A DNA stretch of 41,279 bases from a virus. The first letter of the stretch is position 1; every line of letters starts with the position of its first letter. The notes under the pieces are model-generated. The model did no database searches and was not told the origin of the DNA. It saw nothing but the letters and a program-made list of their open reading frames with translations. Of the stretch, positions 638-41,279 are shown piece by piece. Made by a program: the position numbers and the translations under genes. Where the stretch lies: positions 1-41,279 of the IMG/VR virus record IMGVR_UViG_3300045988_151297. The stretch is one strand, 5' to 3'.

Positions 638-667
638 CTAGCATATCAGTTTAAATTGATGTGCTAG
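638..667. other. 11-bp-stem hairpin in the AT-rich leader upstream of terS
   Basis: CTAGCATATCA (638..648) pairs with TGATGTGCTAG (657..667) with one G-U. The loop is GTTTAAAT. Confidence 0.35.
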
Positions 668-691
668 TATTAAAACTCAAAGGTGGTAGAG

Positions 692-841: not shown

Positions 842-874
842 GCGTCTTTTTATTTTATTTAAGGAGGTGTTGAG

Positions 875-1312
875 GTGAGTAAATTAAATGAAAAACAAAA
901 GGCTTTTGCAAATTATTATATTGAAAGCCTTAATGCGACTGAAAGCTATAAAAGGGCTTACAATGTAGTCAATCAAAGTACAGCAGAAGCAAATGGAAGC
1001 CGACTGCTTAGAAATGCCAAGGTTAAAAACTACATAGATGAAGTTATGAGTGCTAAAGATGAAAGCAGAATAGCTTCACAAGATGAAATATTACAGATAC
1101 TTACTGATATAGCTAGAGGAATTACAGAAGAGGAAGTAGTTCAATTTAGTCAATTGGGGGAAGAGTTAAGAACAACTAGAAAACCAACTATAAAAGATAG
1201 AATGAAAGCTTCTGAATTACTTGGAAAAAGGTATAGAATGTGGGTTGATAAAGTCGAAGCTAATGTTAATCAACAAGTAATATTCGAAGGGGAGGATATG
1301 CTTGAAGATTAA
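875..1312 (+). CDS. terS: Terminase small subunit (Terminase_2 / P27-like)
   Basis: The N-terminus KLNEKQKAFANYYIESLNATESYKRAY is the typical small-terminase HTH signature. GTG start follows AAGGAGGTG. The gene overlaps terL. Confidence 0.9.
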   Translation: MSKLNEKQKAFANYYIESLNATESYKRAYNVVNQSTAEANGSRLLRNAKVKNYIDEVMSAKDESRIASQDEILQILTDIARGITEEEVVQFSQLGEELRTTRKPTIKDRMKASELLGKRYRMWVDKVEANVNQQVIFEGEDMLED

Positions 1313-2549: not shown

Positions 2550-2559
2550 GAGGTGTATT

Positions 2560-3927
2560 ATGAGAAAAATAAAAATAGATAAAGATTATACTTTAACTAA
2601 TGATTTAATACTTGATTTAATAGAAAAACATAGTGAAGAAAAATCAAGATTAGAAAAGCTTCTAAAATATTACAATAATGAAAATGACAAGATAAGTAAT
2701 AGAGTATATAAGAATAAAAATAAGCCACAAAATAGATTATCTCACCCTTACGCTCAATACATAACTGATACTGCGACTGGATATTTATTAGGGAAACCTA
2801 TTGCTTACTCAACAGAAGATAAAAAGCTTTTAGAAGAAATAACTGATATATTTAAGTATAATGATGAAGCTGATAACAATACAACTTTAGCTAAGATGGC
2901 GAGTATATATGGTTACGCTTATGAAATAATGTACATAGATAAATATGCTAATCCTAGATTTAAAGCTGTTGATCCTAGTGAGTTAATAGTTTGTTATGAT
3001 AACACTTTAGACGAAAATATAATATTAGCTATAAGATATTATGATGAAATAGTTAGAGTTAATGATGAAGATGAAACTATTACTAGACTTGAAATATATA
3101 CAAAACCTATTGAAAATGACAAAGGTCAAATAGTTGGTAATGGTAAAATCATAAGAGGAACTATAGAAGATAATAATATAACTTTATCAGATGAAGAAGA
3201 TTGTTATTTTGATGATATACCAGTAAATGTTTATATCAATAATGATGAACTTTATGGGGACTTTGAAAAAGTAATAAGCTTAATAGATGCTTACGACCAA
3301 AGTCAGTCAGATACTGCTAACGATTTTGAACTATTTACTAATTGTATGCTTGTAGTAAATGGTGAATTAATAGATGATGAACAAGCTAAAGACTTAAATG
3401 ACATAAATTTAATACAATTTTTAAATTCTGATAGTGATGCTAAATATCTTATAAAAGATATACAAGATACTGCTTTAGAGAATTATAAGAATAGATTAAA
3501 TGAAGATATACACCGTTTTAGCTTTGTACCCAATATGAGTGATACCGAGTTTTCTTCAAACGCTAGTGGTGTAGCTATGAAATTTAAGCTTATGGGACTT
3601 GAAAACTTAGTAGGAGTTAAGGAAAGTAAATTTAGAAAGGGCTTAATGAGAAGGATAGAGTTGTTATGTGCTTATACTAAAATGAAAAATAATAGCGACT
3701 ATTCTTATTTAGCTATTGAGCCAGTCTTTACTAGAAATACTCCTAATAATGAGTTAGAGTTATCACAAATAATGCAAAACTTAGATGGAATTTTAAGTGA
3801 AGAAACTATAATTGGGATGTCGCCTAGAGTTAGTGATATTCAAGCAGAAATAGAGAAAAAAGAAAAAGAAGCTAATAAGCTTTATGAGGATAATTATTCT
3901 GAATTAGGTGATATAGATGCCGAATAA
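2560..3927 (+). CDS. Portal protein, SPP1 gp6-like
   Basis: 455 aa directly after terL, with ATG 2560 preceded by AGGAGG. The track ORF starts earlier at 2512, without an RBS. Sequence is typical portal type (NRLSHPYAQYITDTATGYLLGKPI). Confidence 0.9.
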   Translation: MRKIKIDKDYTLTNDLILDLIEKHSEEKSRLEKLLKYYNNENDKISNRVYKNKNKPQNRLSHPYAQYITDTATGYLLGKPIAYSTEDKKLLEEITDIFKYNDEADNNTTLAKMASIYGYAYEIMYIDKYANPRFKAVDPSELIVCYDNTLDENIILAIRYYDEIVRVNDEDETITRLEIYTKPIENDKGQIVGNGKIIRGTIEDNNITLSDEEDCYFDDIPVNVYINNDELYGDFEKVISLIDAYDQSQSDTANDFELFTNCMLVVNGELIDDEQAKDLNDINLIQFLNSDSDAKYLIKDIQDTALENYKNRLNEDIHRFSFVPNMSDTEFSSNASGVAMKFKLMGLENLVGVKESKFRKGLMRRIELLCAYTKMKNNSDYSYLAIEPVFTRNTPNNELELSQIMQNLDGILSEETIIGMSPRVSDIQAEIEKKEKEANKLYEDNYSELGDIDAE

Positions 3928-4948
3928 TTTACCTAATGAAGAATATTGGACTAAAAGAGAAACCTATAAACTGAAAAAAGGCTTAAAAGATTTAAAAAAA
4001 ATAGAAAAAGAATTAGTTAATGAATATAAAAAAGCTATGAATGAGATAGGTAAAGAAATTAGTAATTTATTTTATAAATATGCTAAAGATAATAACCTAT
4101 CTTATTCTAATGCAAAAAAATATTTAAACAGTAGCGAATTTAAAGAATTTAAAAGAGATTTAAAGTCTTATATGAAGCTTATAGAAGAAACAGGCGATGA
4201 AGAACTTTTACTTGAGTTAAATACTTTAGCTATGAAAAGCCGTATAAGCCGTTTAGAAGAAATGTTTTATCAGTGCAGTAAATACATCAATGAAGTATAC
4301 GAAAACACTAATAATAGGCTTCAAATAGCTTACAGTAGCACTATAAAAGATAATTATTACCAAACTATATATGATATACATAAAGCTATAGGAGTAGGTG
4401 CTAGTTTTTCATATATTGATAATGATATGATAAAAGAAATATTAGCTTTTCCTTGGAGTGGTAGGCATTATAGTCAAAGGTTATGGAGCAACAGAACCAA
4501 ATTGAAAAATGCTATGGTTGAAGAACTTACTCAAATGCTTATACAAGGCAAAGGAGTAAAAGAAACTTCTAGGGCATTATCTAAAAGACTAGATGCAGAT
4601 TTAAAAAACTGTATAAGGCTTATACATACTGAACATTCATATTTTATGGGAGAAGCTACTGCAAAGGCATATGATGAGTTAGGAGTAGATAAATATCAAT
4701 TCCTTGCTACTTTAGATAATAGGACTTCTGAAATATGTCAAAAGCTAGACGGGAAAGTATTTAATTTAAAAGATAGAGTAGTTGGTGTTAATGCTTCGCC
4801 TATGCATGTTCACTGTCGCTCTTGCGAGATCCCTTATATAGAGGATAACTATTCAACTAGATTTGCAAGAGATAGCAAAGGTAAAAGAATAGAAATAGAT
4901 TCAAGTATGACTTACAAAGAATGGGCTAAAATTTATAAAATAGAGTAA
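3917..4948 (+). CDS. Head morphogenesis / minor capsid protein, SPP1 gp7 / Mu F-like
   Basis: 343 aa after the portal gene. Conserved FPWSGRHYSQRLWSN, TEHSYFMGEA, and C-terminal LDNRTSEICQKLDGKVF and HVHCRSC motifs of the Phage_Mu_F family. Confidence 0.9.
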   Translation: MPNNLPNEEYWTKRETYKLKKGLKDLKKIEKELVNEYKKAMNEIGKEISNLFYKYAKDNNLSYSNAKKYLNSSEFKEFKRDLKSYMKLIEETGDEELLLELNTLAMKSRISRLEEMFYQCSKYINEVYENTNNRLQIAYSSTIKDNYYQTIYDIHKAIGVGASFSYIDNDMIKEILAFPWSGRHYSQRLWSNRTKLKNAMVEELTQMLIQGKGVKETSRALSKRLDADLKNCIRLIHTEHSYFMGEATAKAYDELGVDKYQFLATLDNRTSEICQKLDGKVFNLKDRVVGVNASPMHVHCRSCEIPYIEDNYSTRFARDSKGKRIEIDSSMTYKEWAKIYKIE

Positions 4949-4983
4949 TTGTGATATTTAATTGTTTAAATTTCAATATTTAT

Positions 4984-5015
4984 ACATACTGTATGTGATA
5001 AATATATGTTATAAT
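4984..5015 (+). promoter_or_regulatory. Extended -10 promoter (TGtTATAAT, 5007..5015) with upstream 6-1-6 palindrome ACATACtGTATGT (4984..4996)
   Basis: Read directly from the sequence. It lies 18 nt upstream of ATG 5033, in the gap after the gp7-like gene. Confidence 0.4.
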
Positions 5016-5032
5016 AATATCGAGGTGATTAT

Positions 5033-5311
5033 ATGCTAACATATTATTATTTGCCATTAGATGCAGATGCAGTGGAAATAGAAGTATTAAGGCAATTATA
5101 TAAATATTGTAAAGATAAAAGTTTTATTTGCGAATATTCATTAGCTTCATTGTCTAATAGTTGTGATAAAAGATTGAATATAACAAAAAGAAAAATAGAA
5201 ACTATATTAAAAAACTTTGAAGCTAAAGGATGGATAAAACATATAAATAAAGGTGTTGGAAGAAATAAAAGTATTCTTAAGATAACTTTTAAAGAGAATG
5301 TTAACAATTAA
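5033..5311 (+). CDS. Small winged-helix DNA-binding protein, paralogue of the N-terminal domain of the replisome organiser (32807..33550)
   Basis: 92 aa, aligning by eye to residues about 4..88 of the 247-aa organiser. Shared motif: DKRLN(I/L)T..K..TILK.FE..G(W/Y)IK. RBS GAGGTGA. The gene has its own promoter and terminator. Confidence 0.6.
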   Translation: MLTYYYLPLDADAVEIEVLRQLYKYCKDKSFICEYSLASLSNSCDKRLNITKRKIETILKNFEAKGWIKHINKGVGRNKSILKITFKENVNN

Positions 5312-5365: not shown

Positions 5366-5386
5366 TTGAAAAAATATGTGACATTT

Positions 5387-5441
5387 CTAACAACAATCTA
5401 ACAACAATCTAACAACAATCTAACAACAATCTAACAAATAA
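5387..5441. repeat. Tandem 11-bp iterons CTAACAACAAT, 4 full copies plus 1 partial
   Basis: Perfect units at 5387, 5398, 5409 and 5420, with a partial unit at 5431. The period of 11 bp is one helical turn. Confidence 0.95.
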
Positions 5442-5480
5442 AATATAGTATTTGCAACAGATTTAATGATTAATCGTTGC

Positions 5481-5617: not shown

Positions 5618-5701
5618 TTGTCTTTTTTACTTGTTATAGACATTAAAGAATAACTCGGAAAACTTAAAAGCCTACTATGGCTATAAACTAGGAGGATCAA
5701 A

Positions 5702-6304
5702 ATGGAAAAAACTAAAAACAACGTTGTTAATAATGAAGTAGATAAAATAGCTTCAGATGTTCATGATAAGCTAATTAAAGGAACAGATGTAGAAGCTAAA
5801 GATGTTAAAACTTTCACTCAAGATGAAGTTGATAAGATGATTTCTAAAAGACTTCAAAGAGAAAGAAAAGATATAGAAGCTAAGATTGAAGCTGAACGAA
5901 AAGAAGCAGAAGAATTAGCTAAATTATCAGAGCAAGAAAAGCAAAAGAAATTATTTGAAAAACAAGTTAGGGAATTTGAAGAAACTAAAAAAGCATTTGA
6001 AGCTGAAAGGTTATTAAATGAAACATCAAAGCAATTAGCTTCTAAAAATTTACCTATAGAATTCGCTCAAATGTTAAAAGGTGAAGATGCTGAAAGCACT
6101 TTTAATAATATAAATGTGTTTGAAGCTAAATTCAATGAAGCCTTAGAAAAGATGGTAACTGAAAGACTAAGAGGGGCGACTCCAAAAGTTGCAACTACAA
6201 GTAATGGAATAACTAAAGAAGAATTTAAGAAAATGTCTTTAGCACAACAAGCAGAACTTGCTAAAAAAGATAAAGATTTATATTTAGAACTATCAAAAAA
6301 TTAA
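5702..6304 (+). CDS. Scaffolding protein (DUF4355-like)
   Basis: 200 aa, coiled-coil and rich in K/E. FTQDEVDKMISKRLQRERKD is the typical scaffold motif. It sits immediately upstream of the capsid gene and follows RBS AGGAGG. Confidence 0.85.
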   Translation: MEKTKNNVVNNEVDKIASDVHDKLIKGTDVEAKDVKTFTQDEVDKMISKRLQRERKDIEAKIEAERKEAEELAKLSEQEKQKKLFEKQVREFEETKKAFEAERLLNETSKQLASKNLPIEFAQMLKGEDAESTFNNINVFEAKFNEALEKMVTERLRGATPKVATTSNGITKEEFKKMSLAQQAELAKKDKDLYLELSKN

Positions 6305-6326
6305 TTAAATTATGAGGTGAAAAATT

Positions 6327-7118
6327 ATGGCATGGAATGAAAACGTAGTATATGATAATTTTGTATTAGAGAATAAATTTAAAGATATATTAAAAACTAA
6401 ATTAGATGCAATAAAATTTATGACTGTTGACACTGACTTACAAGGTGTTGAAGGTATGAAAAAAACTATAAACACTTATACTTATGAAGGTGCAGTAGAA
6501 GCAGTTGCAGAAGGTGCAACTAATACTACAAGAGGTAAAGTTACTTTTGACGATCAAGATTATGATGTTGTAGTTAAGCAACAAGTATTTGACTATACTG
6601 ATGAACAAGCTATGAAAGATGCTAATGTAGTAGAGGTAGGAATAAAAGGTTCAGCTATAGAAATGGTAAACGACTTAAATAATGATTTCTTTACTGAAAT
6701 AGCAAAAACTTCTACAGTACATACACATGAAGGTGCGTTTAACTATGATGTTGTTGTTGATGCAATAGAAAAAATGAACATAGAAGATGAAACTGGATTA
6801 TTCTTATTAGTTGGGAATGATTTAAAAGCAGCTATAAGAAAAGATGCAGATTTTAAAGCTTCAAGACTAGGAGAAATATTATATACTGGTCAAATAGGAG
6901 ACATATGTGGAGTACCAGTTGCATTCTCTAAGAAAGTACCAGCTAATACTGCTTACTTAGCAACTAAAGAAGCAGTAACTTGCTTTGTTAAGAAGCAAAA
7001 TGAAGTTGAACAAGATAGAGATAAGGAAAAGAGAATAAACACTGTTATAACTAGAAAAGTTGCTTTAGTAGCTTTAACAGATGCAACGAAAGCAGTTAAA
7101 ATAACAGTTACACCCTAA
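6327..7118 (+). CDS. Major capsid protein
   Basis: 263 aa in the position after the scaffold gene, with strong RBS GAGGTGA. The sequence is typical of a small HK97-fold capsid family of Firmicutes phages. A terminator lies downstream. Confidence 0.8.
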   Translation: MAWNENVVYDNFVLENKFKDILKTKLDAIKFMTVDTDLQGVEGMKKTINTYTYEGAVEAVAEGATNTTRGKVTFDDQDYDVVVKQQVFDYTDEQAMKDANVVEVGIKGSAIEMVNDLNNDFFTEIAKTSTVHTHEGAFNYDVVVDAIEKMNIEDETGLFLLVGNDLKAAIRKDADFKASRLGEILYTGQIGDICGVPVAFSKKVPANTAYLATKEAVTCFVKKQNEVEQDRDKEKRINTVITRKVALVALTDATKAVKITVTP

Positions 7119-7212
7119 GCAAGACCTAGGCGAAGATCTAGGAGTTGAAAAAGCATCTATAGAAGGTGTTAAGCCTAAAAAAGCTAGAAAAGATAAGAAG
7201 GTAGGGGAATAA
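7117..7212 (+). other. Candidate +1 frameshift extension of the capsid protein (31 codons, no internal start codon)
   Basis: The capsid gene ends ..ACA CCC TAA G. The +1 frame from AAG 7117 stays open to TAA 7210..7212 and encodes KQDLGEDLGVEKASIEGVKPKKARKDKKVGE. A CCTAG/CTAGG hairpin (7125..7142) lies 6 nt downstream of the site. Confidence 0.3.
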
Positions 7213-7229
7213 TTTCTCCTATCTTTTTT
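7198..7229 (+). terminator. Terminator/attenuator after the capsid region
   Basis: An 11-bp stem AAGGTAGGGGA/TCTCCTATCTT (two G-U) followed by a T-run. Confidence 0.5.
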
Positions 7230-7248
7230 CTTTAAGTAGGTGATAATT

Positions 7249-7593
7249 ATGTTAGAAAACATAAAATTAATATTAAATATTACTGATGATTCACAAGATA
7301 ACTTAATATTATTGTATTTAGCTAAGGTTGAAACTATGGTTGTAGATTATTGCAATGTAAATGAGTTAACTGGTGGGCTAGAAAGCTTTATAGAAGATAA
7401 AGTTATATCTATTATGAAGCCTTTAGTAACTGGAGGAACTCAAAACACTGGTGAAATCAAGTCTATAAGCAGAGGGGACACTAAAATAGAATACAACGTT
7501 GGAGAAGCAGTTGTAGCTACTACAAATGGTGCTACTTTAACTTCATCTGATAAAGAATTTTTAAAGCAATATAGAAGGGCTAGGTGCTATTAA
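7249..7593 (+). CDS. Head-tail connector protein (gp6-like, Phage_connect_1)
   Basis: N-terminus MLENIKLILNITDDSQDNLILLYLAKVE..VVDYCN is the typical connector signature. ATG 7249 follows AGGTGA. The track start at 7240 is a GTG. Confidence 0.75.
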   Translation: MLENIKLILNITDDSQDNLILLYLAKVETMVVDYCNVNELTGGLESFIEDKVISIMKPLVTGGTQNTGEIKSISRGDTKIEYNVGEAVVATTNGATLTSSDKEFLKQYRRARCY

Positions 7594-7940
7594 TGACTGA
7601 TATTGAAATATTAGAAAGCACTTACTTTGATAGATGCACTATTAAGAGAAAAGTTAAAACTAAAAATGAAAACACTGGTGTAACTGAAACTGTAGAAAAA
7701 ATAATAGCTGAAAATGTTAAATGTGCTTTATCTAAAAAAGACACTCCTGTAATGACGTCTGATGGAGTTGGCAAGTTAGCTTTTTCACATTTATTATTTT
7801 TAAATCCTAACATTGATATTCAAGAAGGCGATATAGTAGAAGTTACTACAATGGGTAAAATATCTATTTATTTAGCCTCTAAGCCTTTCTATTATTCTTC
7901 TCATATGGAAATTTCATTAAGTTATAAAGAGAGGGCTTAA
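7593..7940 (+). CDS. Head-tail adaptor / head-closure protein
   Basis: 115 aa with TAATG coupling to the upstream gene. Size and position are typical for an SPP1 gp16 / HK97 gp9-like adaptor. Confidence 0.6.
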   Translation: MTDIEILESTYFDRCTIKRKVKTKNENTGVTETVEKIIAENVKCALSKKDTPVMTSDGVGKLAFSHLLFLNPNIDIQEGDIVEVTTMGKISIYLASKPFYYSSHMEISLSYKERA

Positions 7941-7941
7941 A

Positions 7942-8301
7942 ATGGAAATTCAAGGGCTAGATGAATTTGCTAAAACTTTAAATAATGCTAGTAATAATTT
8001 TGAAAAAGAAGCTAATAAAAAGCTAGATATTATTGCTAGTAAACTTTTATCTAAGACTAAGCTAAAAACACCAGTTGACACAGGATTACTTAGGAGAAGT
8101 TGGCAAACTAAAAGACTTAATAATCTTGAAAGAATTGTTTTCAATAACGTGAGATATAGCGGTTTTATAGAGTACGGACACCGAACAAGAGGTGGAAAAT
8201 CTTTTATAGATGGAGTTTATATGCTTGAAAAATCAGTAAAAGAAATAGAATTAGAACTTGATAAAGAATTTTCTATAATGATAGATAATCTTTTCAAGTA
8301 G
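7942..8301 (+). CDS. HK97 gp10-family tail-attachment protein
   Basis: 119 aa with the motif PVDTGLLRRSW characteristic of the gp10 family. Confidence 0.75.
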   Translation: MEIQGLDEFAKTLNNASNNFEKEANKKLDIIASKLLSKTKLKTPVDTGLLRRSWQTKRLNNLERIVFNNVRYSGFIEYGHRTRGGKSFIDGVYMLEKSVKEIELELDKEFSIMIDNLFK

Positions 8302-8314
8302 AAAGTAGGTTAAT

Positions 8315-8743
8315 ATGATAACTTACAAAGATATTTTATTTTCTGCTACTAAAATTTTATCTGATAATTTTAATTGTGATGTAATAGTTAAAAATGAAGA
8401 GGGGACTTTTGAGAATGAATGTTTTTATGTAACTTTAGTACCAGTTACAAGTAAAGCTTCTACTTTAAAAACTAATGAAAAACAATTAATGATTTCAGTA
8501 AAATATTTTGGTGGTAGTAAGCTAGATAATTATGATATAGCAGATAAATTAGAAAGTTTATTTGCTAGAAGTTTAAAAGTTAATGATAGGGTGTTAAATA
8601 TATCTAACGTTGAGCCTAACTTTTTAGCTGATGAAGTTGGTGATATGCTAGATTTTTTAATTTATATAACTTATTTTGATGATATTTACATCGAAAAGAA
8701 AATTTATGACAGTATGAAAAATATTGACATGGAAATTAAATAA
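8315..8743 (+). CDS. Putative tail completion / sheath terminator protein (position-based)
   Basis: 142 aa between the gp10-like and sheath genes. No motif recognised. Confidence 0.35.
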   Translation: MITYKDILFSATKILSDNFNCDVIVKNEEGTFENECFYVTLVPVTSKASTLKTNEKQLMISVKYFGGSKLDNYDIADKLESLFARSLKVNDRVLNISNVEPNFLADEVGDMLDFLIYITYFDDIYIEKKIYDSMKNIDMEIK

Positions 8744-8757
8744 AAAGAGGTGATTAA

Positions 8758-9822
8758 ATGGCTTCAAATATAGGATTACCAAGCATAATTGTTGAGTTTA
8801 AACAAAAAGCTTCTACTGCTATACAAAGAGGAAATACTGGTATAGTTGCTTTAGTGTTAAGAGATACACAAGGGCAAGGACTTTACAACATAAAAGGATC
8901 TTATGATATACCTAGCGAGTTATCAGAAACTAATAAAAAATACATAAACTTAACTTTATTAGGAAATGTTACTGCACCTTCTAAAGTTGTAGCTTATGTT
9001 GTAGGGGCAGAAACACAATTAAAAGATGCTTTAGATTATTTAGAAGCAGTAGATTTTAACTATTTAGTTGTACCTGCTATACAAGAAGAGGAAAAAGAAG
9101 TAGTTAAAACTTTTATAGAAAAAATGAGAAATGATATAAAAGTTAGAGTAAAGGCAGTAATGAATTTAGATGCTGACTATGAAGGAATAATAAACTCAAC
9201 TAATACTGCTACTATGAAAGAAGGAGAAATAAACGTAGACGAGTTTTGTTGCGTAACAGCAGGACTTATAGCAGGAACTCCTTTATCTCAATCGGTAACT
9301 TATGCAGTACCTAAAAATGTATTAGATATACCTTCTCAAACTAAAGCAGAGTCAGAAGCTAAAGTTAAAAAAGGTGAGTTAATACTTGTAAAAGAAATGG
9401 GTAAAATCAGAGTTGCTAGAGGTGTAAATTCATTAGTTTCAACTACTACTGAAAAAGGAGATTTATTCCAAAAGATAAAATTAGTTGATACTATGGACTT
9501 AATACACAATGATATAAGAAAAACTTGTATAGATACTTACATAGGTAAAGTAGCTAACAACTATGATAATAAGTGCGTTTTAATAACTGCAATATCTTCT
9601 TATTTTGAAGAATTAGCAAAAGAACAACTTATAGAAAAAGATTTTAAAGTTGAAATAGATATAGATAAACAAGTTAAATATTTAAAATCTGTAGGTGTTG
9701 ATACTTCTGAAATGAATGAGCAAGAAATAAAAGAAGCTAATACAAAAGATAAAGTATTCTTAATAGCTAATATCAAGTTAGTTGATGCTATGGAAGAAAT
9801 ATCTCTTGAAATAAATTTATAG
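8758..9822 (+). CDS. Contractile tail sheath protein (XkdK-like)
   Basis: 354 aa directly upstream of the tube gene. Sequence is typical of PBSX-like sheath proteins (GLPSIIVEFKQKASTAIQRG..GIVALVL). Confidence 0.9.
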   Translation: MASNIGLPSIIVEFKQKASTAIQRGNTGIVALVLRDTQGQGLYNIKGSYDIPSELSETNKKYINLTLLGNVTAPSKVVAYVVGAETQLKDALDYLEAVDFNYLVVPAIQEEEKEVVKTFIEKMRNDIKVRVKAVMNLDADYEGIINSTNTATMKEGEINVDEFCCVTAGLIAGTPLSQSVTYAVPKNVLDIPSQTKAESEAKVKKGELILVKEMGKIRVARGVNSLVSTTTEKGDLFQKIKLVDTMDLIHNDIRKTCIDTYIGKVANNYDNKCVLITAISSYFEELAKEQLIEKDFKVEIDIDKQVKYLKSVGVDTSEMNEQEIKEANTKDKVFLIANIKLVDAMEEISLEINL

Positions 9823-15376: not shown

Positions 15377-16403
15377 TACTTATGAAAATATAAAACAAAG
15401 AATACTTGATAATATAAATATAGATATAGACAAAAGAGAAGGTAGCTTTACTTCAAATATGGTTTCTCCTTTATCAGAAGAACTTGCAAAAGCCTATATA
15501 AATATGAGTGATATATTGTCCCTTGGTTTTATAGAAGATAATTTTGATACTTACTTAGATAAAAGAGTATCAGAATTTGGGGTATATAGAAAAGAAGGTG
15601 TAAAAGCTACTGGAGAAATAAAAGTCGAAGGTAAAGAAGGGGCTATAATAACAAATGGTACTCTTATAAAAGCTAATGATTTATATTTTACAGTATTAAA
15701 TGATATAGAACTTCCAACAGATAATATTTTATATGTAGAAGCTAATGAAGTAGGTTATAAATATAATTTACTTGCTAATACTGAATTTGAATTAGTAGAA
15801 AAAAATGACAAGGTAACTAAATTAGTAAATGAAGTTGACTTCTCAAAAGGTGTAGATGTTGAATCTGATGAAGATTTGAGAAAAAGATTTGTTAAAGTTG
15901 TAAATAATCCTAGTACAAGTGGAAACAAAGCACACTATGAAGAATGGGCTTTAGAAGTTGACGGAGTAGGAAGGGCAATAGTTTATCCTTTGCATAATGG
16001 AAATGGTACTGTAAAAGTTATGATAATAGGAAATGATAATAAACCAGTTGCAGAAGAAATAATTAATAATTGTAAGCTTCATATCGAGGGAAATATGCCT
16101 ATAGGTTGCCAATTAACTGTAACTACACCGAGCCTTTTAAATGTGTCTGTAAAGGCTTCTATTGAGTTAAAAGAAGGTTATACTTTAGAAGATATACAAA
16201 CAGACTTTAAAGCTTCTTTAAATGAGCATTTGAAGGATGTAACAACAGAGTTAGTTTATTCTAAAGTGTATGGTTTATTAGTTAATCATAGTGGAGTTGA
16301 AGATATAACTGAATTTACAATAAATGATAATAATATAAATATATCAATATCAGAAGATAAAATAATAAATATATCAGAAGTAACTTTAAGTGAGGTGGTT
16401 TAA
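15369..16403 (+). CDS. Baseplate J-like protein (XkdT-like)
   Basis: 344 aa with N-terminal IKQRILDNI..DKREGSFTSNMVSPLSEELAKAY, typical of Baseplate_J. Confidence 0.85.
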   Translation: MSNTYENIKQRILDNINIDIDKREGSFTSNMVSPLSEELAKAYINMSDILSLGFIEDNFDTYLDKRVSEFGVYRKEGVKATGEIKVEGKEGAIITNGTLIKANDLYFTVLNDIELPTDNILYVEANEVGYKYNLLANTEFELVEKNDKVTKLVNEVDFSKGVDVESDEDLRKRFVKVVNNPSTSGNKAHYEEWALEVDGVGRAIVYPLHNGNGTVKVMIIGNDNKPVAEEIINNCKLHIEGNMPIGCQLTVTTPSLLNVSVKASIELKEGYTLEDIQTDFKASLNEHLKDVTTELVYSKVYGLLVNHSGVEDITEFTINDNNINISISEDKIINISEVTLSEVV

Positions 16404-23303: not shown

Positions 23304-23783
23304 CTATATTGCATTTATATCGTTTAAATGTTGCTCAAAGCTTAAGTGATTAGCATAAACTTCTTTTATAGCTTCTATTCTTCTGTTAAGTCTTTTAAGT
23401 TCTTTTCCTTCTTCTCTTTTGAATATAGCTTGTAATTCACCATTTGTTTCTACTCTTGCATCTTTAGTTGCTCCAAGTTTTTTATTTGCTTTTCTGTCAG
23501 CTATGTATATATACCCATCCATTAAAAAGCAATTACTCGAATGTCTGTTATCAACTAATATTTCTTTTCCGTTCATTATTAAAGTTTTTACTGTTCTTCC
23601 TTCTCCCATTTCAACTTTAACATCTGTTCCTCTACTTGTTCTATATTCTATCATTTTATTTTCTCCTTTTCTTATTAGAGAATGTGCTAATGATAATGCT
23701 AATCTGAAAGTTGCTTTATAGCTATCACCTTTTCTTATTATTTTTTTAGTTATTTCATGTGCTTTCTTCATAACATTTCTCAT
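23304..23783 (-). CDS. Hypothetical protein (159 aa) sharing a 43-aa N-terminal module with 36206..36697
   Basis: ATG 23783 follows AAGGAGG. The N-terminus MKKAHEITKKIIRKGDSYKATFRLALSLAHSLIRKGENKM is near-identical to the paralogue. The C-terminal parts are unrelated. Confidence 0.65.
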   Translation of the reverse strand: MRNVMKKAHEITKKIIRKGDSYKATFRLALSLAHSLIRKGENKMIEYRTSRGTDVKVEMGEGRTVKTLIMNGKEILVDNRHSSNCFLMDGYIYIADRKANKKLGATKDARVETNGELQAIFKREEGKELKRLNRRIEAIKEVYANHLSFEQHLNDINAI

Positions 23784-23820
23784 TTTTACATCCTCCTTAT
23801 TTATTAATTATTATACTTTA

Positions 23821-24114: not shown

Positions 24115-24177
24115 AAATAAATAAACCCAAAGCATCATATGATAGTGTGGCTAGACATATTGAAAATGCTTGGATGG

Positions 24178-24259
24178 AAAATTTCTTTCTATCCGGATAG
24201 AAAGTTTTTTTCTATAGCTTAGAAAAATTCTTTTCATCCGGACAGAAAGTTTTTTTACA
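24178..24259. promoter_or_regulatory. Two about 37-bp direct repeats 45 bp apart; the first holds a perfect 20-bp palindrome CTTTCTATCCGGATAGAAAG (24185..24204) followed by T7, and the second copy is degenerate
   Basis: Copy 1 is at 24178..24214 and copy 2 at 24223..24259 (4 mismatches in 34). Each reads as hairpin plus T7 on the + strand, so they may be operators or + strand terminators. Confidence 0.6.
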
Positions 24260-24343
24260 TAAACTAGAATTAATAAACTAGATTAAACAAATTATATTTA
24301 TTTAACTTTTAGAAAAAATAAAAAATAAATTCAAAATAAGAAG

Positions 24344-24403: not shown

Positions 24404-24712
24404 ATGAATGGTGTAATATTTAAAGGTTTTCATGTAAGTAAGGCTCTTGATGGAATTATAAATGATAAAGATTTAAATGGAGATGAAAAAGTTATATTAA
24501 TAACTATAAGTTTTTACCATAAGGGTTTAATAGAAGAAGATCCTGCTATGAGTTTGCCGATGGATAAAATAAGCGAATTAGTTAATTGTTCAAAGTCGAC
24601 TGCAAATAGAATAATGAAAAAATTAATAGAAAAGGGATATTTAGAAAGCATAAAAAAAGGTCAAGGGAAACCTAATATTTATGTATTTAAGGGGTGGAGA
24701 AAATGGCAATAA
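24404..24712 (+). CDS. Winged-helix protein, short RepA_N-like
   Basis: 102 aa. LNGDEKVILITISFY ... ISELVNCSKSTANRIMKKLIEKGYLESIKKGQGKPNIYVF follows the RepA_N-type pattern (...CS..T....ELxExGLI....G.GKPN.IYV). Confidence 0.45.
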   Translation: MNGVIFKGFHVSKALDGIINDKDLNGDEKVILITISFYHKGLIEEDPAMSLPMDKISELVNCSKSTANRIMKKLIEKGYLESIKKGQGKPNIYVFKGWRKWQ

Positions 24713-25446
24713 TTAAAACTAATATAAATGAAGTTGAAGAAGTATTTGCTAAAATGGATTTAGCTTTAATATGTGAAGAAAGATATAATAGTTTAAAACA
24801 ATTCGACTGGGTTGTATATACAATCCTTAAAAATCAAGAAGGTTTATCTAAGAGAAGCTACTTAATGGGGAATAAAAGTTATGTAGATAAATATAATAAT
24901 GTATTTGTAAGGATAAGCCAAAAGAAATTAGCTAAATTATTAAAAACTTCTATACCAACTTTAAGAAATTCACTTAATAGATTAGTAGAAGCTGAATTAT
25001 TAGAAATTCATATAGTGGGGCAAAATGAGTGCAACATAATGTATATTGGGAACCCAGTAAGAACAATAACATTTGGGGAGTATGTTGAAAATATAGGGAA
25101 AGCTTTGGAAGATGAAGATAATGTAAAAGATTTTAAGCCTAGTATAAACGTTGATAATATTAAAGATTTAGATAATAAAAAAGCTTCTACTGTGCCACCA
25201 GTAAAAGCAGATAAAGAAAATATTAAATCTAATAATAGTATACCACAAAACAATAAAAAATATGCTAGTAAAAAAGAGGAAAATAAAGTTTTAAATAACA
25301 AACATAACAATACCGTTAAAAATACTTTTACTGAATATGAAGCTAAAGAGCTTGAAATAAAACTTCAAAAATCTCAATGGGAAAGACTTGGATATTCTCA
25401 ATTTGAAGCAAATTATCCAATAAATAAAGAAATAGGAGATGTATAA
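24703..25446 (+). CDS. RepA_N-like replication-initiator-type protein with K/N-rich C-terminal half
   Basis: FAKMDLALICEERYNSLKQFDWVVYTILKN...VFVRISQKKLAKLLKTSIPTLRNSLNRLVEAELLEIHIVGQNECNIMYIGNP matches the RepA_N N-terminal domain logic. ATG 24703 follows GGTGGAG. The track start is GTG 24694. Confidence 0.5.
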   Translation: MAIIKTNINEVEEVFAKMDLALICEERYNSLKQFDWVVYTILKNQEGLSKRSYLMGNKSYVDKYNNVFVRISQKKLAKLLKTSIPTLRNSLNRLVEAELLEIHIVGQNECNIMYIGNPVRTITFGEYVENIGKALEDEDNVKDFKPSINVDNIKDLDNKKASTVPPVKADKENIKSNNSIPQNNKKYASKKEENKVLNNKHNNTVKNTFTEYEAKELEIKLQKSQWERLGYSQFEANYPINKEIGDV

Positions 25447-27383: not shown

Positions 27384-27419
27384 AAGTCATTAAAATAAAG
27401 TTTTTAATGGAATATTGCG

Positions 27420-27457
27420 AAGCTATGGAATTAATTTTCTATAGCTTTTTATTTTTT
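27420..27457 (+). terminator. Intrinsic terminator
   Basis: AAGCTAT/ATAGCTT stem followed by TTTTTATTTTTT. Confidence 0.6.
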
Positions 27458-27538: not shown

Positions 27539-27760
27539 ATGAAAATATATACTTTAGAAAATAAAAATGAAATATTAGCTATATTAACTCACAAAGATAA
27601 TATGAGTTATAGAGATTTTAGAAATATATGTTTAGAGGTTAATGAAGAAGCACAAAATGACTTTTACACTTTAAAAGATATATTAATTAACGACTATGAA
27701 TTTGCTCCTGTAGAAGCTTGTGGAGGCTTTGAAGTGGCTAAAAAGAAAGGAAGTTTCTAA
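27539..27760 (+). CDS. Hypothetical protein (73 aa)
   Basis: Track ORF after RBS GAGGGGGA. Confidence 0.55.
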   Translation: MKIYTLENKNEILAILTHKDNMSYRDFRNICLEVNEEAQNDFYTLKDILINDYEFAPVEACGGFEVAKKKGSF

Positions 27761-27838: not shown

Positions 27839-27958
27839 ATGGATTGGTCAAAACAATGTTATCAATGTAACAAATTTACAATAATTGAAGAATATGAAGA
27901 TAGATGGATATGTAAATGCGATATATGTGGAGAAATATTTACAAAATGGAAAAGATAA
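27839..27958 (+). CDS. Zinc-ribbon micro-protein (39 aa)
   Basis: CYQC ... CKCDIC. RBS AGGAGGG. Confidence 0.45.
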   Translation: MDWSKQCYQCNKFTIIEEYEDRWICKCDICGEIFTKWKR

Positions 27959-28079
27959 AAAATAAAGGTGGGGATAATTCCTCACCTACTACTATTACTA
28001 CTAATATTTTTATCATTTTTATATAAATTCTTTATAATATATTTTTCTTATATTGTAGCAGATTTAAAGGGGGTTAGCT

Positions 28080-29015
28080 ATGTTAATTGAAGGTTTATTA
28101 GTTGGGGCAATAGGTGGGTTAATTGCTTATGCTAGTAAAATAGTTTATGAAGCTAATAAATCAAATGATGAAGTTATTGAAATTGAAAATATAGTTAAAT
28201 ATGAATATATACCAGTTGGGGAATGGGAGGATATTGAAATGGAATTAAATAAAGTTAAATATACTTTTATTGAAGGAGAAAAAGAAGGAGTAAAGGCTTT
28301 TATAGGATACGATTTAGAAGGGAATCTAAAAAACTTTGATATGTTAGAAGGTCATACAATGGTTGGAGGTGCTTCTAGGTGGGGAAAATCTAGCTTTTTA
28401 AATGTATTTATAACTAATATAACTAAAACATATACGAGAAATGAAGTTTGTTTTTTAGGTTGTGATTATAAAAAAGCAGATGTTTATTATTTTAGAAATT
28501 ATAACAACTTTTTAGGTATGAGTACAAATAAAAAAGAATTTATGGCTCAAATAAAATGGCTAGAAAAAGAAATGAATAAAAGGGCTGATATATTAGACGA
28601 AGCTAATTGCAGAAATGTAATAAATTATAATAAAAAGCATGATGTAAAAATGAGTTATATAATATTTGTAATAGATGAATTAGTTCAAGTTGTATGTGAT
28701 AGAGAGTGCAAAGAAGTGCTTCATACTGTTATGAGTAAATGTGCATCTTATGGAATTTACTTTTTATTAGCTACTCAAGACTGTACAAAGGAAATAATAG
28801 GTAGATGCAAAATGAATTGTAGCCAGATAATAGGCTTTCATACATTCGATCAAACAGATAGTGATACATTAATTGGTAAAGGCTATAACTTGCAAGATAT
28901 AAATGTAAAAGGTAGATGCAAAATAAAAAATAGTGAAGGTATAGTAGAAACTCAAATATTTTATTTAGAAGAAGATGAAATTGAGGAAATGTTAAAACCT
29001 TATTTGAATAAATAG
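28080..29015 (+). CDS. Membrane-anchored FtsK/SpoIIIE-family P-loop ATPase
   Basis: N-terminal TM LIEGLLVGAIGGLIAYA. Walker A GGASRWGKSS, Walker B IIFVIDELVQV, and the FtsK-type motif FLLATQD. Confidence 0.8.
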   Translation: MLIEGLLVGAIGGLIAYASKIVYEANKSNDEVIEIENIVKYEYIPVGEWEDIEMELNKVKYTFIEGEKEGVKAFIGYDLEGNLKNFDMLEGHTMVGGASRWGKSSFLNVFITNITKTYTRNEVCFLGCDYKKADVYYFRNYNNFLGMSTNKKEFMAQIKWLEKEMNKRADILDEANCRNVINYNKKHDVKMSYIIFVIDELVQVVCDRECKEVLHTVMSKCASYGIYFLLATQDCTKEIIGRCKMNCSQIIGFHTFDQTDSDTLIGKGYNLQDINVKGRCKIKNSEGIVETQIFYLEEDEIEEMLKPYLNK

Positions 29016-29026
29016 GAGGGCTTAAA

Positions 29027-29422
29027 ATGGTTTCATACTGCTATAGATTTAAAGATATTAATGGAAGTATAATTTATATTGGTAAAACTGTAGATATAAA
29101 TAAAAGAATGGCACAACATTTTGGTGGGAAAGGTCATCTTGATAAAAATTGTTATAAATCTGTAGCAGTAATTGAATATCAGAAATATAAGACTGAAAGT
29201 GATGCTTTAATTTATGAAACTTATTATATAACAAAATATTCTCCTAAATATAATAAATTAGGTCAATCAAGAGATAAACCAACGGTCCAGTTAGAAGAAA
29301 AGGAATGGAAAACTTATCAAGTGCTTAAAAAGCAAGTTGAAAAAAGTCCTGCAAGTTGGGGATGCTTAACTTATATATTAATAATTGCTTTAATATATGC
29401 AATATATCAACTATTTGCATAG
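29027..29422 (+). CDS. GIY-YIG nuclease-domain protein with C-terminal transmembrane anchor
   Basis: YCYRF..GSIIYIGKT..NKRMAQH ... ALIYETYYITKYSPKYN supplies the GIY, YIG, Arg, Glu and Asn motifs. C-terminal WGCLTYILIIALIYAIYQLFA. The start lies 11 nt after the FtsK-like gene. Confidence 0.8.
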   Translation: MVSYCYRFKDINGSIIYIGKTVDINKRMAQHFGGKGHLDKNCYKSVAVIEYQKYKTESDALIYETYYITKYSPKYNKLGQSRDKPTVQLEEKEWKTYQVLKKQVEKSPASWGCLTYILIIALIYAIYQLFA

Positions 29423-29432
29423 AGGTGTAAAC

Positions 29433-29603
29433 ATGAACGAGAAAATAAATGAAGCTATAAAAAAGAGTGGATTAAAAAAGAAGTGGATAGCTGCACAGTT
29501 AGATATAACATATAACAGTCTAAGAAGAAAGTTAAAGGGTGAAATTCCTTTTACTAAATTAGAACTAGAAAAAATTTATTCCATCTTAGAGAAATATATT
29601 TAA
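29433..29603 (+). CDS. Small HTH DNA-binding protein (56 aa)
   Basis: ATG 29433 follows GAGGTG. SGLKKKWIAAQLDITYNSLRRKLKGE is HTH-like. Confidence 0.5.
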   Translation: MNEKINEAIKKSGLKKKWIAAQLDITYNSLRRKLKGEIPFTKLELEKIYSILEKYI

Positions 29604-29608
29604 TTATG

Positions 29609-29746
29609 TGTTATAATTATATTACTATATGTAGTATTAAAATCTAAAGAAAAAGGGGGAAACTCCTTTAACACTTTTAACACTAAGATTTTGTAAAATT
29701 TTATTGACTTAAAAAATGTACTTCCTAAACTGGAAGTATATTTTTT
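29609..29746 (+). ncRNA. Candidate small non-coding RNA unit (extended -10 promoter, about 125 nt, terminator)
   Basis: TGtTATAAT at 29609..29617. No ORF or start codon follows. Internal hairpin AAGGGG/CTCCTT and TTAACACT repeated twice. Terminator TACTTCC/GGAAGTA plus T-run at 29719..29746. Confidence 0.25.
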
Positions 29747-29755
29747 ATTTTGTTG

Positions 29756-32806: not shown

Positions 32807-33550
32807 GTGAAAAAATATTTTATAGCATTAGATGAAATGACACTTGAAGAAATAGATATTTGGAGATTATTATGCAGATACTCAAATTATGATACAGATG
32901 TAGCAGGATATACAATTAATCAGTTAGTTGTAAATTCTGACAAGAGATTAAATCTAACTACTCAAAAGGTTAGGACTATATTAAAGAAATTTGAGAAAGA
33001 AGGGTATATTAAGTTTCTTACAAGTGGGAGTAAAGGGAAAGAAAGTACATTGGAGCTAACAATTAAACAACAATTATTCAACAACAATGTAACAAATAAA
33101 AGTGAGCAATTGCAACGAGTTGAGGAGTCAGATAACAGTAATCTAACAACTAAACAACAACAATCTAACAATACTACAAAGAAAAAAGAAAAAGATAATA
33201 ATAATATATATAGTTTAGTTATAGATTATCTTAATAGAAAAGCTTCTACTAATTACAGATCAACTACTAAAAATACTCAAAGTTTTATAAATGCTAGAGT
33301 AAAAGAAGGATATACAGTGGAAGACTTTAAAAAGGTCATTGATAGTAAAAGCAAAGATTGGCTTAATACAGATTTTGAAAAGTATTTAAGGCCAGCAACT
33401 TTATTTGGGACTAAATTTGAAAATTATTTAAATGAAGCAAATAAAAAAGAACCTACTGCAATAGGTTCTGATAAAAATAAAAATATTAAAGTTAATCCTA
33501 GTATATGCAACAATAGAAGAAAATATACACAAGCTTGCGATATTGGGTAG
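32807..33550 (+). CDS. Replisome organiser / replication initiation protein (N-terminal wHTH plus conserved phage C-terminus, DnaD-like)
   Basis: The C-terminal IYSLVIDYLNRKASTNYRSTTKNTQSFINARVKEGYTVEDFKKVIDSK...WLNTDFEKYLRPATLFGTKFENYLNE is the conserved phage C-terminus (Phg_2220_C-type). The gene precedes the primase-helicase. Confidence 0.75.
   Translation: MKKYFIALDEMTLEEIDIWRLLCRYSNYDTDVAGYTINQLVVNSDKRLNLTTQKVRTILKKFEKEGYIKFLTSGSKGKESTLELTIKQQLFNNNVTNKSEQLQRVEESDNSNLTTKQQQSNNTTKKKEKDNNNIYSLVIDYLNRKASTNYRSTTKNTQSFINARVKEGYTVEDFKKVIDSKSKDWLNTDFEKYLRPATLFGTKFENYLNEANKKEPTAIGSDKNKNIKVNPSICNNRRKYTQACDIG
33080..33176. repeat. Iteron-like motifs inside the organiser gene (candidate origin)
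   Basis: 33080..33101 matches 5422..5443 at 21 of 22 positions. 33156..33171 AACAACAATCTAACAA is identical to the iteron junction at 5389..5404. 33164..33176 TCTAACAATACTA is identical to 5528..5540. CTAACAA copies lie at 33143 and 33165, 22 bp apart. Confidence 0.6.
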
Positions 33551-36171: not shown

Positions 36172-36205
36172 ATAAGTATAAATAAAAGAAAAGGAGAAAG
36201 CAAAG

Positions 36206-36697
36206 ATGAAAAATATAATGAAAGAAGCTCACAACTTAACTAAAAAAATAATAAGAAAAGGTGATAGCTATAAAGCTACTTTCAGAATATGTTTATCTTT
36301 TGTTCACTCTGAAATAAGAAAAGGAGAAAATAAAATGGTAGAATTAAAAGGTAGTGAAAAACAAGTAAAATGGGCAAATGATATAAGAGAAAATTTTATT
36401 GTATGTGTTAATTTTGCAAAAGAATTAGTTGATGAGATAGGTGTTACTGAATTCATCCAAGAAGAATTAGAAGATAATGGGTTTAACTCTATTACAGAGG
36501 CTTTTGAAGCAATAGAAAAGCAAGAAAATGCAAGTATAATAATAAAAAAATTAAAAGGGTATGATTTTTTAGGTTTTGTAAAAAGAGAAAAGGCAAAACT
36601 TGAAGCAAACAGAAGAATATTAACCGTTGAAGCAATTCTTGAAGAAAAAGAATGTATAGTTGCAAATATAATAATGAATTTAGCAGATATAAAGTAG
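36206..36697 (+). CDS. Hypothetical protein (163 aa) sharing a 43-aa N-terminal module with 23304..23783
   Basis: MKEAHNLTKKIIRKGDSYKATFRICLSFVHSEIRKGENKM, then an unrelated C-terminal part (GSEKQVKWANDIRENF...). RBS AAGGAGAAAG. Confidence 0.65.
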   Translation: MKNIMKEAHNLTKKIIRKGDSYKATFRICLSFVHSEIRKGENKMVELKGSEKQVKWANDIRENFIVCVNFAKELVDEIGVTEFIQEELEDNGFNSITEAFEAIEKQENASIIIKKLKGYDFLGFVKREKAKLEANRRILTVEAILEEKECIVANIIMNLADIK

Positions 36698-41038: not shown

Positions 41039-41194
41039 ATGAAGCACAAGTTTTGGATTAGAGTTAGATTTTGTGGAGAAATCATAGATAGATTTTTCTT
41101 AGATTATCCTAAGATGAATTATTTTACAACTAAACATAATATAAAAGATAAAGACATTATTTTTATTAAAACTAGAAAAGAACTAATAAGGTAA
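41039..41194 (+). CDS. Small hypothetical protein (51 aa) spanning the repeat junction
   Basis: ATG follows GGAGGAAG. Protein begins MKHKFWIRVRFCGEIIDRFFLDYPKMNYF... The stop at 41192..41194 is equivalent to 12..14. Confidence 0.45.
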   Translation: MKHKFWIRVRFCGEIIDRFFLDYPKMNYFTTKHNIKDKDIIFIKTRKELIR

Positions 41195-41279
41195 TAAAAC
41201 AATAATATCTAGGGGGAGTATTATGACTAAAGATAAATATAAATATATCGAAGGGTTATTAAGAAATTATAAAAAAAAT
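41181..41279. repeat. Second copy of the 99-bp terminal repeat, containing the duplicated 5' end of the regulator gene (ATG 41223)
   Basis: Identical to 1..99. Confidence 0.95.

Follow-up and report, generated by a model that had tools for sequence, protein, structure and literature searches.

The viral record IMGVR_UViG_3300045988_151297 of the IMG/VR database, 41,279 nt in length (hereafter the window, meaning the whole stretch analysed), carries two closely spaced genes on its plus strand. One is a gene of 311 aa with an ATG start for an FtsK/SpoIIIE-type P-loop motor (28080-29015; assigned by Pfam, PHROG, PDB and AlphaFold2 (AF2) with Foldseek), and the other a gene of 131 aa, also with an ATG start, for a UvrC-type GIY-YIG nuclease (29027-29422; Pfam, PDB, AF2 with Foldseek). 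The 11-nt spacer between them (29016-29026, plus strand) contains a GGAGGG ribosome-binding site (RBS), found by direct reading. An earlier note on this DNA took these two open reading frames (ORFs), with the same starts and the same spacing, for one DNA-handling module at the membrane; the ORFs were confirmed, and their treatment as a single module is supported by the linkage described below. The note also considered them co-translated. What the data support is co-transcription of tightly spaced genes.

At the GC content of the window (27.4%), the chance of 311 stop-free codons is about 1e-14. The encoded protein has the Walker A motif GGASRWGKSS at residue 96 (nt 28365-28394), the Walker B motif VIDELV at residue 197 (nt 28668-28685) and the sensor-1 motif LLATQD at residue 229 (nt 28764-28781), all three of which had been read correctly before. 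It matches the Pfam family FtsK_SpoIIIE (PF01580) with an E-value of 1.4e-15 and PHROG 1358, “FtsK/SpoIIIE-like protein”, with 1.5e-51. The AF2 model, built from 42 homologues, has a mean predicted local distance difference test (pLDDT) value of 80.4, rising above 85 across most of residues 70-305. In Foldseek this model is closest to the FtsK motor (2ius, 6t8b/g/o; E down to 1.9e-18, TM-score 0.70-0.72, root mean square deviation (rmsd) 2.2-3.4 Å), followed by the pCW3 coupling protein TcpA (E 2.9e-16, TM-score 0.65, rmsd about 3.5 Å) and, with weaker E-values and lower TM-scores, by the EccC/EssC ATPase domains; VirB4, HerA and viral packaging ATPases are far weaker matches. The PDB sequence search with the motor (FtsK 4e-10, TcpA 7e-8) agrees with this ranking. 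The protein has the motor that is characteristic of septal translocases, a RecA-like alpha/beta domain with both Walker motifs and sensor-1. Its final helix spans residues 298-308 and the chain stops at 311, with no gamma domain in the model and no extra domain in Pfam; about 65 residues precede the motor core. As judged from sequence and model, the protein is a minimal FtsK-type motor core.

Residues 2-20 of the motor (nt 28083-28139, plus strand) form a hydrophobic, Gly-rich N-terminal helix, after which about 45 residues lead to the core. The Kyte-Doolittle (KD) value of this segment is 1.74, the threshold adopted for a transmembrane helix being 1.6, and the confidence of the model is low there; on this prediction the “transmembrane helix” is borderline. 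The N-terminus is modular among the relatives: three unrelated transmembrane-like versions occur, and several lineages have an amphipathic non-transmembrane N-terminus with a “LEPLVD”-type motif (KD 0.9-1.0); in one of these, the motor shares about 90% identity with the query, 90% of which is aligned. Membrane anchoring is not a conserved property of the ATPase; the invariant membrane anchor is the nuclease. The proposal of the earlier note that both partners sit in the membrane stands for the tail of the nuclease, but not for the ATPase, whose helix is borderline and is replaced by a non-transmembrane segment in close relatives.

The catalytic core of the nuclease occupies residues 3-78 (nt 29033-29260, plus strand). 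It matches the Pfam GIY-YIG family with 1.1e-16 and the N-terminal domain of UvrC in the PDB (1yd6, 6e-9; 30% identity to residues 18-92 of B. caldotenax UvrC). The AF2 model (pLDDT 87.9) superimposes on the UvrC GIY-YIG domains 1yd5/1yd6 with an rmsd of 1.7-2.6 Å. Residues Y6, Y17, R27, H31, E64 and N76 align to those of UvrC and do not vary among 26 homologues with identities down to 54%, which argues for a catalytically intact enzyme, predicted to be active. A complete GIY-YIG core beside an FtsK-type motor had been recognised from the letters alone, and both assignments hold. The core is followed by a conserved linker with invariant W94 and Y97, and the protein has no DNA-binding domain of its own. 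A full UvrC/Cho excinuclease is ruled out: the NCBIfam uvrC profile scores 54 bits (1.1e-14) against a cut-off of 285, and the 131 residues hold no further domains.

The C-terminal transmembrane helix of the nuclease (residues 111-131, nt 29357-29419, plus strand; KD and AF2 model), also noticed earlier, is well supported. The KD value is 2.12 over residues 113-131, AF2 gives a helix at 113-130, and the tail is hydrophobic above the threshold in 101 of the 104 distinct C-termini of homologues, which represent at least four unrelated tail sequences. Hydrophobic character that is kept while the sequence changes is the pattern of a genuine tail anchor, and from sequence and model the nuclease is predicted to be a tail-anchored membrane protein. 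The helix comes after basic residues and ends at most a few residues before the C-terminus, so the catalytic domain should face the cytoplasm. A GIY-YIG nuclease anchored in the membrane by its tail appears not to have been described previously and appears to be the novel element of the cassette.

The earlier note proposed a search for the pair in other genomes; this was run and gave strong support. The GIY-YIG gene lies directly after the FtsK-like gene in 19 non-redundant loci, where the identity of the FtsK-like proteins to that of the window is 30-93% and the spacing between the genes is from -1 to 49 nt. Loci sampled via the primase-helicase have the pair in all five evaluable cases. Sampling via GIY-YIG homologues gave a complete FtsK-like gene directly upstream in five of six loci, the upstream gene of the sixth (L042) being cut by the contig end. 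Three contigs of one Romboutsia sp. metagenome-assembled genome (MAG; SMAG_U15893), labelled L017, L018 and L019 and counted among the 19 loci, each have an FtsK-like gene paired with a tail-anchored GIY-YIG gene, so that one host population may harbour several phages of this kind. The early region is highly mosaic, yet the FtsK-like and GIY-YIG genes and a conserved gene of 73 aa described below stay together; of the two partners, the nuclease is the better conserved in the loci compared. In effect, the two genes are obligatorily paired.

The linkage persists in two unrelated backbones. Locus L023 (Logan SRR29026042_953, positions 1-5296) has four FtsK-like P-loop genes (505, 232, 276 and 431 aa) with a tail-anchored GIY-YIG gene among them; the FtsK-like and GIY-YIG genes of the pair are two genes apart, and the locus is an expanded version of the cassette. 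Locus L028 is part (5654-8841) of CP124686.1, from an isolate of Paraclostridium bifermentans; this circular “plasmid” of 35.4 kb is plainly a phage-plasmid, with an HK97-type head, tape measure, lysin and ParM. It contains a string of genes headed by that for an FtsK-like protein and continuing with those for a Replic_Relax-like protein (annotated as hypothetical) and ParM, plus a divergent tail-anchored GIY-YIG gene. The latter, annotated as “nucleotide excision repair endonuclease”, is a divergently oriented neighbour of the FtsK-like gene and 49.5% identical to the nuclease of the window; among the window ORFs, the GIY-YIG gene alone matches CP124686.1 at E<=1e-5.

Further GIY-YIG genes without a transmembrane tail occur sporadically in the relatives: L001 (5492-6454) and L002 (5645-6394), annotated as Seg-like or plain GIY-YIG, L008 (2439-2846, minus strand) and L036 (11480-12184), the last with a counterpart in L037. 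Unlike the fixed tail-anchored gene, these are probably homing endonucleases. The GIY-YIG homologues of Tsamsa-like Bacillus phages and of large Bacillus/Jeotgalibacillus plasmids have only the catalytic domain in common with the window nuclease, and neither a transmembrane tail nor an FtsK neighbour.

The earlier note knew of no described precedent for the pairing. Our literature search also found no paper on an FtsK/GIY-YIG pair; nevertheless, an FtsK-like gene followed by one for the nuclease-fold protein Replic_Relax (PF13814) is a recurrent annotated cassette in phages, phage-plasmids and plasmids of Bacillota, and the claim does not stand in that form. The Replic_Relax gene comes after the FtsK-like gene, usually overlapping it, in phages Pascal, 268TH007, PK2 and phi18-2, and the same order is found in plasmids pBM500 and pBac41 and in the IMG/VR contig L012. 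Neither partner lies beside the FtsK-like gene in Mycobacteriophage Bobby and Listeria phage LIS04. An “FtsK/SpoIIIE-replication-relaxation-caspase operon” has been described in a Bacillus phage-plasmid (PMC11526630). Replic_Relax is attributed to the PD-(D/E)XK nuclease superfamily and tied to plasmid replication and relaxation (PMC3424549); it is also classed as a MOBC relaxase (PMC5357655). According to the same source, mobilisable elements of Firmicutes have the genes of FtsK-related TcpA coupling proteins immediately 5' of those for relaxases (PMC5357655). The nuclease fold is based on PMC3424549 and on a D...E-V-Q motif; searched against the PDB, the Replic_Relax profile gave a winged-helix match only. 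As to phage FtsK homologues, the gene is delayed-early in phage Fah (PMC4113786), and their roles in sporulation, segregation or DNA injection have only been a matter of speculation (PMC4113786, PMC3853050).

The window has no detectable homologue of Replic_Relax; the gene that follows the FtsK-like one, and so fills the Replic_Relax slot, is that for the GIY-YIG protein. A 188-aa protein of L023 has no Pfam match and no direct BLAST match to the Bacillus proteins. It is linked transitively, by pairwise E-values, to a 150-aa protein of CP124686.1 (3.9e-10) and thence to the Replic_Relax protein of PK2 (3.5e-5), and on these matches is probably Replic_Relax-like.

The ends of the window (1-99 and 41181-41279) are an exact direct repeat of 99 nt, so that the window represents a circular assembly and a complete genome of 41,180 bp. 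It has the complete gene set of a myovirus (terminase, portal, capsid, sheath, tape measure, baseplate and amidase). The structural genes are followed by a short minus-strand block and then by a plus-strand early region that includes a winged helix-turn-helix (wHTH) protein, a RepA_N-like protein, the cassette, helix-turn-helix (HTH) regulators, a Rad52/ERF-type annealing protein, an ERCC4 protein, a DnaD-like initiator, a primase-helicase and SSB; the cassette shares its strand with the genes for recombination and replication. The wHTH and RepA_N-like genes are located at 24404-25446, the latter 2.6 kb upstream of the cassette; together with the DnaD-like initiator and primase-helicase they make two replication systems, as in phage-plasmids. 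Clear RepA_N genes are found near the cassette in the relatives L020 and L041. No integrase, recombinase, ParA, ParM or partition gene was found in any window ORF scanned. The related contigs are free-standing, 40-49 kb long, and carry the MAG names Paraclostridium, Romboutsia, Peptostreptococcaceae and Clostridium. The window belongs to a phage of gut clostridia, a non-integrating myovirus of Peptostreptococcaceae/Clostridia.

We infer by analogy that the cassette is this lineage's own variant of the “FtsK-like protein + Replic_Relax” cassette of Bacillota, which is of the TcpA-like coupling-protein/relaxase type. MOBC relaxases such as pAD1 TraX are described as restriction-endonuclease-like. 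Considering the equivalence of the slot and the published data on TcpA, our best guess is a coupling-protein/nickase module by which the phage genome, in its episomal or replicative form, is processed at the membrane ahead of translocation, either in transfer from the cell or in partition inside it; as a whole, this statement is offered tentatively and could well prove wrong. It was not among the proposals of the earlier note. A ring of the FtsK-like protein would engage double-stranded phage DNA and present the duplex to the membrane-tethered nuclease, which lacks a DNA-binding domain; the nuclease would nick the delivered DNA in the manner of UvrC-type domains. The tail of the nuclease and the hydrophobic or amphipathic N-terminal segment of the motor would hold the complex at the cytoplasmic face of the membrane. 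The GIY-YIG nickase would then take the slot of the relaxase, and the motor would be the counterpart of the coupling protein. A gene of lysogenic conversion or defence is less likely.

Several points weigh against the coupling-protein/nickase interpretation. No relaxase is known to us among GIY-YIG enzymes, and its tail anchor would keep the protein from accompanying the transferred DNA. No type IV secretion system (T4SS) genes, oriT or recognised relaxase were identified in the 41-kb window; for transfer through a T4SS, a helper would need to work in trans. Neither by sequence nor by fold is the motor closer to TcpA than to FtsK. The arginines that flank the sensor-1 strand of FtsK (KAR...ATQR) correspond to Ala222 and Asp234 in the window motor, so its competence as a ring ATPase is only assumed; the first of them (at the position of Ala222) is retained in seven more distant members of the family, and the invariant R168 and R279 might replace the missing pair. 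The RepA_N-like protein scores 28.6 bits, just under the Pfam cut-off of 30, so that a plasmid lifestyle of the phage is only putative. Finally, the FtsK/Replic_Relax cassette also occurs together with integrases (268TH007, phi18-2, pBac41) and in Bacillus podophages of uncertain lifestyle, so that a general role in lytic DNA metabolism is equally possible. A more specific version, in which the GIY-YIG protein represents a novel class of non-covalent relaxases or nickases retained in the donor and, with its TcpA-like partner, moves the episomal phage genome through the conjugation pore of a co-resident integrative and conjugative element (ICE) or plasmid, seems to us decidedly improbable; if true, the phage would spread both as virions and by conjugation.

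Other explanations attach to the same facts. The motor could clear or pump the non-integrated genome across division or sporulation septa in place of a partition system, with the nuclease resolving trapped or multimeric DNA. The FtsK motor is the best structural match, the scanned window ORFs include neither an integrase nor a partition gene, the hosts named for the related contigs are spore-forming clostridia, and ParM is encoded in one string with the FtsK-like and Replic_Relax-like proteins in the phage-plasmid of Paraclostridium; the idea has already been floated for Bacillus phages (PMC4113786, PMC11526630). However, the four-helix septal domain, linker and gamma domain, which target and direct the cellular translocases, are all missing from the window motor. 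Partition has no obvious need for a nuclease, which is nevertheless the better conserved of the two partners, and phage FtsK-like genes are common in hosts that do not sporulate (Mycobacterium, Listeria, Staphylococcus, Ralstonia), while the FtsK/Replic_Relax cassette is present in integrating phages. We regard this explanation as doubtful. Rather unlikely, too, is an exclusion or defence system in which the tethered nuclease, fed by the motor, destroys the entering DNA of superinfecting phages or conjugative elements. The inner face of the membrane is a good place to meet such DNA, and an ATPase of the HerA/FtsK family with a nuclease is a known architecture of defence, SIR2-HerA and HerA-NurA being distant fold matches. 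Against this, the cassette is a core pair of the early replication/recombination region, on the same strand, and not a variable moron; no mechanism of self/non-self discrimination is evident; and in PADLOC the ATPase domain had only weak, generic matches (SspH and mad8) and the nuclease no convincing one (E>=4e-4).

The position of the cassette, at the head of the block with the Rad52/ERF-type annealing protein, ERCC4 nuclease, DnaD-like initiator, primase-helicase and SSB, makes it tempting to propose a helper of replication or recombination: a nick by the nuclease would start rolling-circle or recombination-dependent replication at a membrane site, and the motor would remodel or feed the template. 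The delayed-early expression of FtsK in phage Fah (PMC4113786) and the link of Replic_Relax to plasmid replication besides relaxation (PMC3424549) are in line with this. However, the phage already has a full set of initiator and helicase with iterons, FtsK-type motors translocate duplex DNA and do not unwind it, and the membrane anchor of a replication nickase would be left unexplained; the proposal appears improbable to us. The last candidate is a free-standing GIY-YIG homing endonuclease that landed beside an unrelated ATPase gene. Phages often carry selfish GIY-YIG genes, and the relatives do have separate Seg-like ones. The tail-anchored gene, however, is present in every relative examined and linked to the FtsK-like gene, the unrelated backbones included; it has a transmembrane tail where homing enzymes have a DNA-binding domain, and its product is UvrC-like, not Seg-like. 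Its distribution effectively refutes the homing explanation, to which we assign a negligible chance.

FtsK/SpoIIIE homologues are among the most often noted and least understood genes in phages of Gram-positive bacteria. The cassette reported here is no isolated oddity; it is a variant of a recurrent, experimentally untouched cassette, in which a protein with a nuclease fold almost always accompanies the motor. Replic_Relax and the tail-anchored GIY-YIG protein can replace each other in this role, and the linkage stays tight. A vague annotation becomes a defined two-protein machine, for which interaction, nicking and membrane location are predicted. On the coupling-protein/nickase interpretation, these phage genes would be tied to the coupling-protein/relaxase logic of conjugation, which raises the possibility that some phages and phage-plasmids of clostridia and Bacillus are mobilisable.

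Further genes and sites adjoin the pair. A 73-aa protein (27539-27760, plus strand) is, by synteny, the third conserved member of the cassette. The counts for this gene and for the 56-aa gene below refer to 14 other loci, those with a GIY-YIG gene. In all 11 loci with direct adjacency of the FtsK-like and GIY-YIG genes and with an upstream region, the 73-aa gene is found 5' of the FtsK-like gene (43-94% identity); of the remaining loci compared, L004 begins at the FtsK-like gene, and L023, L028 and L012 are without the 73-aa gene. The protein has no match in Pfam, PHROG or the PDB. Between the 73-aa and FtsK-like genes there is a mini-ORF of 39 aa (27839-27958, plus strand; MDWSKQCYQCNKFTIIEEYEDRWICKCDICGEIFTKWKR) with its own GGAGGG site and a zinc-ribbon CxxC...CxC pattern of cysteines; it falls under the 40-aa threshold of the ORF listing. 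The mini-ORF has no Pfam match, and relatives by cysteine pattern occupy the equivalent slot in L002, L006, L011 and L022. Its membership in the module is uncertain.

A promoter-like sequence TTATCA-17-TATAAT (28010-28038, plus strand) matches the consensus at 10 of 12 positions; the promoter scan overall was not enriched over shuffled sequences, which makes this site weak evidence. The AT-rich DNA around it is conserved in L002, L005, L006 and L016. A very hydrophobic ORF of 40 aa (27968-28090), which overlaps the start of the FtsK-like gene, was rejected as a gene, the conserved AT-rich DNA holding the promoter-like site; the segment is probably regulatory (promoter) DNA, a small membrane peptide being possible.

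Downstream of the nuclease lies a gene of 56 aa for an HTH protein of the Fis/BetR type (29433-29603, plus strand; weak matches to Pfam HTH_8/BetR, about 5e-4), for which no PDB relative was found. The listed ORF of 68 aa (29397-29603) overlaps the end of the GIY-YIG gene. An RBS (GAGGTG) precedes the ATG at 29433, and the relatives have a 56-aa gene 0-11 nt past the GIY-YIG gene, so the true start is probably 29433 rather than 29397. Of the 14 other loci, 7 have the HTH gene. In five of them it comes after the GIY-YIG gene, in L020 it immediately precedes the FtsK-like gene, and in L022 it lies about 1.2 kb further downstream. Terminator-like hairpins are located at 29710-29747 (plus strand; a 16-pair stem with a T run) and, upstream of the 73-aa gene, at 27419-27448; six such sites were found in all, with 1.8 expected. 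The promoter-like site and the first of these hairpins would frame a unit of the FtsK-like, GIY-YIG and 56-aa HTH genes, for which these sites are weak evidence.

As to the phage itself, megablast of the locus against GenBank phages gave no match, and a comparison of 25 kb of the window with plasmids by the same program gave a single one, of 55 nt in the baseplate J gene (15914-15968; 94.5% identity to Clostridioides difficile plasmids of 32-36 kb, which are likely phage-plasmids). The nearest TerL proteins, from Bacillus and Staphylococcus phages, are 55-66% identical. It follows from these searches that the phage has no close sequenced relative. A pattern scan of species-representative genomes, which is an insensitive search, gave four short MAG contigs only and no integrated prophage copy; the alignment of distant members contains no stretch conserved enough for scanning a sequence collection.

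Two clusters of an 11-nt iteron (CTAACAACAAT) are found at 5376-5458 and 33056-33203. One is inside the gene of the DnaD-like initiator, and iterons within an initiator gene are typical of an origin. The other is in an intergenic gap of the head-gene region; a second origin, a centromere-like site and a packaging site are its candidate roles. An inverted repeat of 167 nt with 81% identity (23645-23811 and 36178-36344) corresponds to the paralogous 5' ends of the ORFs 23304-23783 (minus strand) and 36206-36697 (plus strand). Just 5' of the wHTH and RepA_N-like genes, two tandem units of 45 nt (24177-24266), each with the palindrome TTTCTATCCGGATAGAAA, look like operator or iteron sites.

In comparison with known systems, the pair resembles HerA-NurA, SIR2-HerA and DUF4297-HerA in that a ring ATPase of the FtsK-HerA superfamily has a nuclease partner. 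The fold similarity is only distant (E about 1e-6, TM-score about 0.5), the nuclease fold is different, membrane tethering is not a feature of the HerA assemblies, and PADLOC gives the window pair no HerA-effector assignment. The N-terminal domain of UvrC/Cho has the fold and catalytic residues in common with the window nuclease. Only this catalytic domain of 80 residues is shared; the window nuclease lacks the UvrB-binding, EndoV-like and (HhH)2 domains and has its conserved linker and transmembrane tail where UvrC has further domains.

Cellular FtsK/SpoIIIE share the RecA-like motor with the window protein and provide the best structural match (2ius, 6t8b; TM-score 0.70-0.72, rmsd 2.2-2.8 Å). 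They have a four-transmembrane N-terminal domain, a linker and a gamma domain that reads KOPS/SRS, all absent from the window motor, which covers about 56% of the FtsK motor domain and has Asp234 in place of the Arg of ATQR. TcpA of pCW3, like its counterparts in plasmids, ICEs and integrative and mobilisable elements of Firmicutes, is likewise a protein of about 300-450 aa with a single PF01580 domain, which in many cases begins with a hydrophobic segment, and is nearer to FtsK than to VirD4; it is encoded immediately 5' of the gene for a DNA-nicking enzyme, as the window motor is of that for a putative one, and is among the best PDB matches of the window motor (6o1w-6o1z, 7e-8 over residues 65-300; by fold, 2.9e-16 with a TM-score of 0.65). 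The N-terminal transmembrane trait of the TcpA type is represented by one borderline helix in the window motor and by transmembrane-like or non-transmembrane segments in the relatives. The partner in TcpA systems is a relaxase of the PD-(D/E)XK, HUH or Rep_trans type, whereas that of the window is a membrane-anchored GIY-YIG protein outside the recognised relaxase classes; homologous cassettes elsewhere carry Replic_Relax/MOBC. The TcpA systems also differ from the window in that the latter has no T4SS and no identified oriT and is a complete genome of a tailed phage.

The FtsK/SpoIIIE-Replic_Relax(-caspase-like) operon of Bacillus elements (Pascal, 268TH007, PK2, phi18-2, RBClin15) resembles the window cassette in that it follows the lysis genes and opens the early region, and in its gene order with overlapping or tight spacing. 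The FtsK homologue of Pascal has an N-terminal hydrophobic helix (MLEFILPVAVGGLAVAFG), a feature that some homologues share with the window motor. The differences are that the motors are only about 23-28% identical to that of the window and that Replic_Relax takes the place of the tail-anchored GIY-YIG protein; L023 and CP124686.1 are the two loci in which both partners, the Replic_Relax-like and the GIY-YIG one, occur together.

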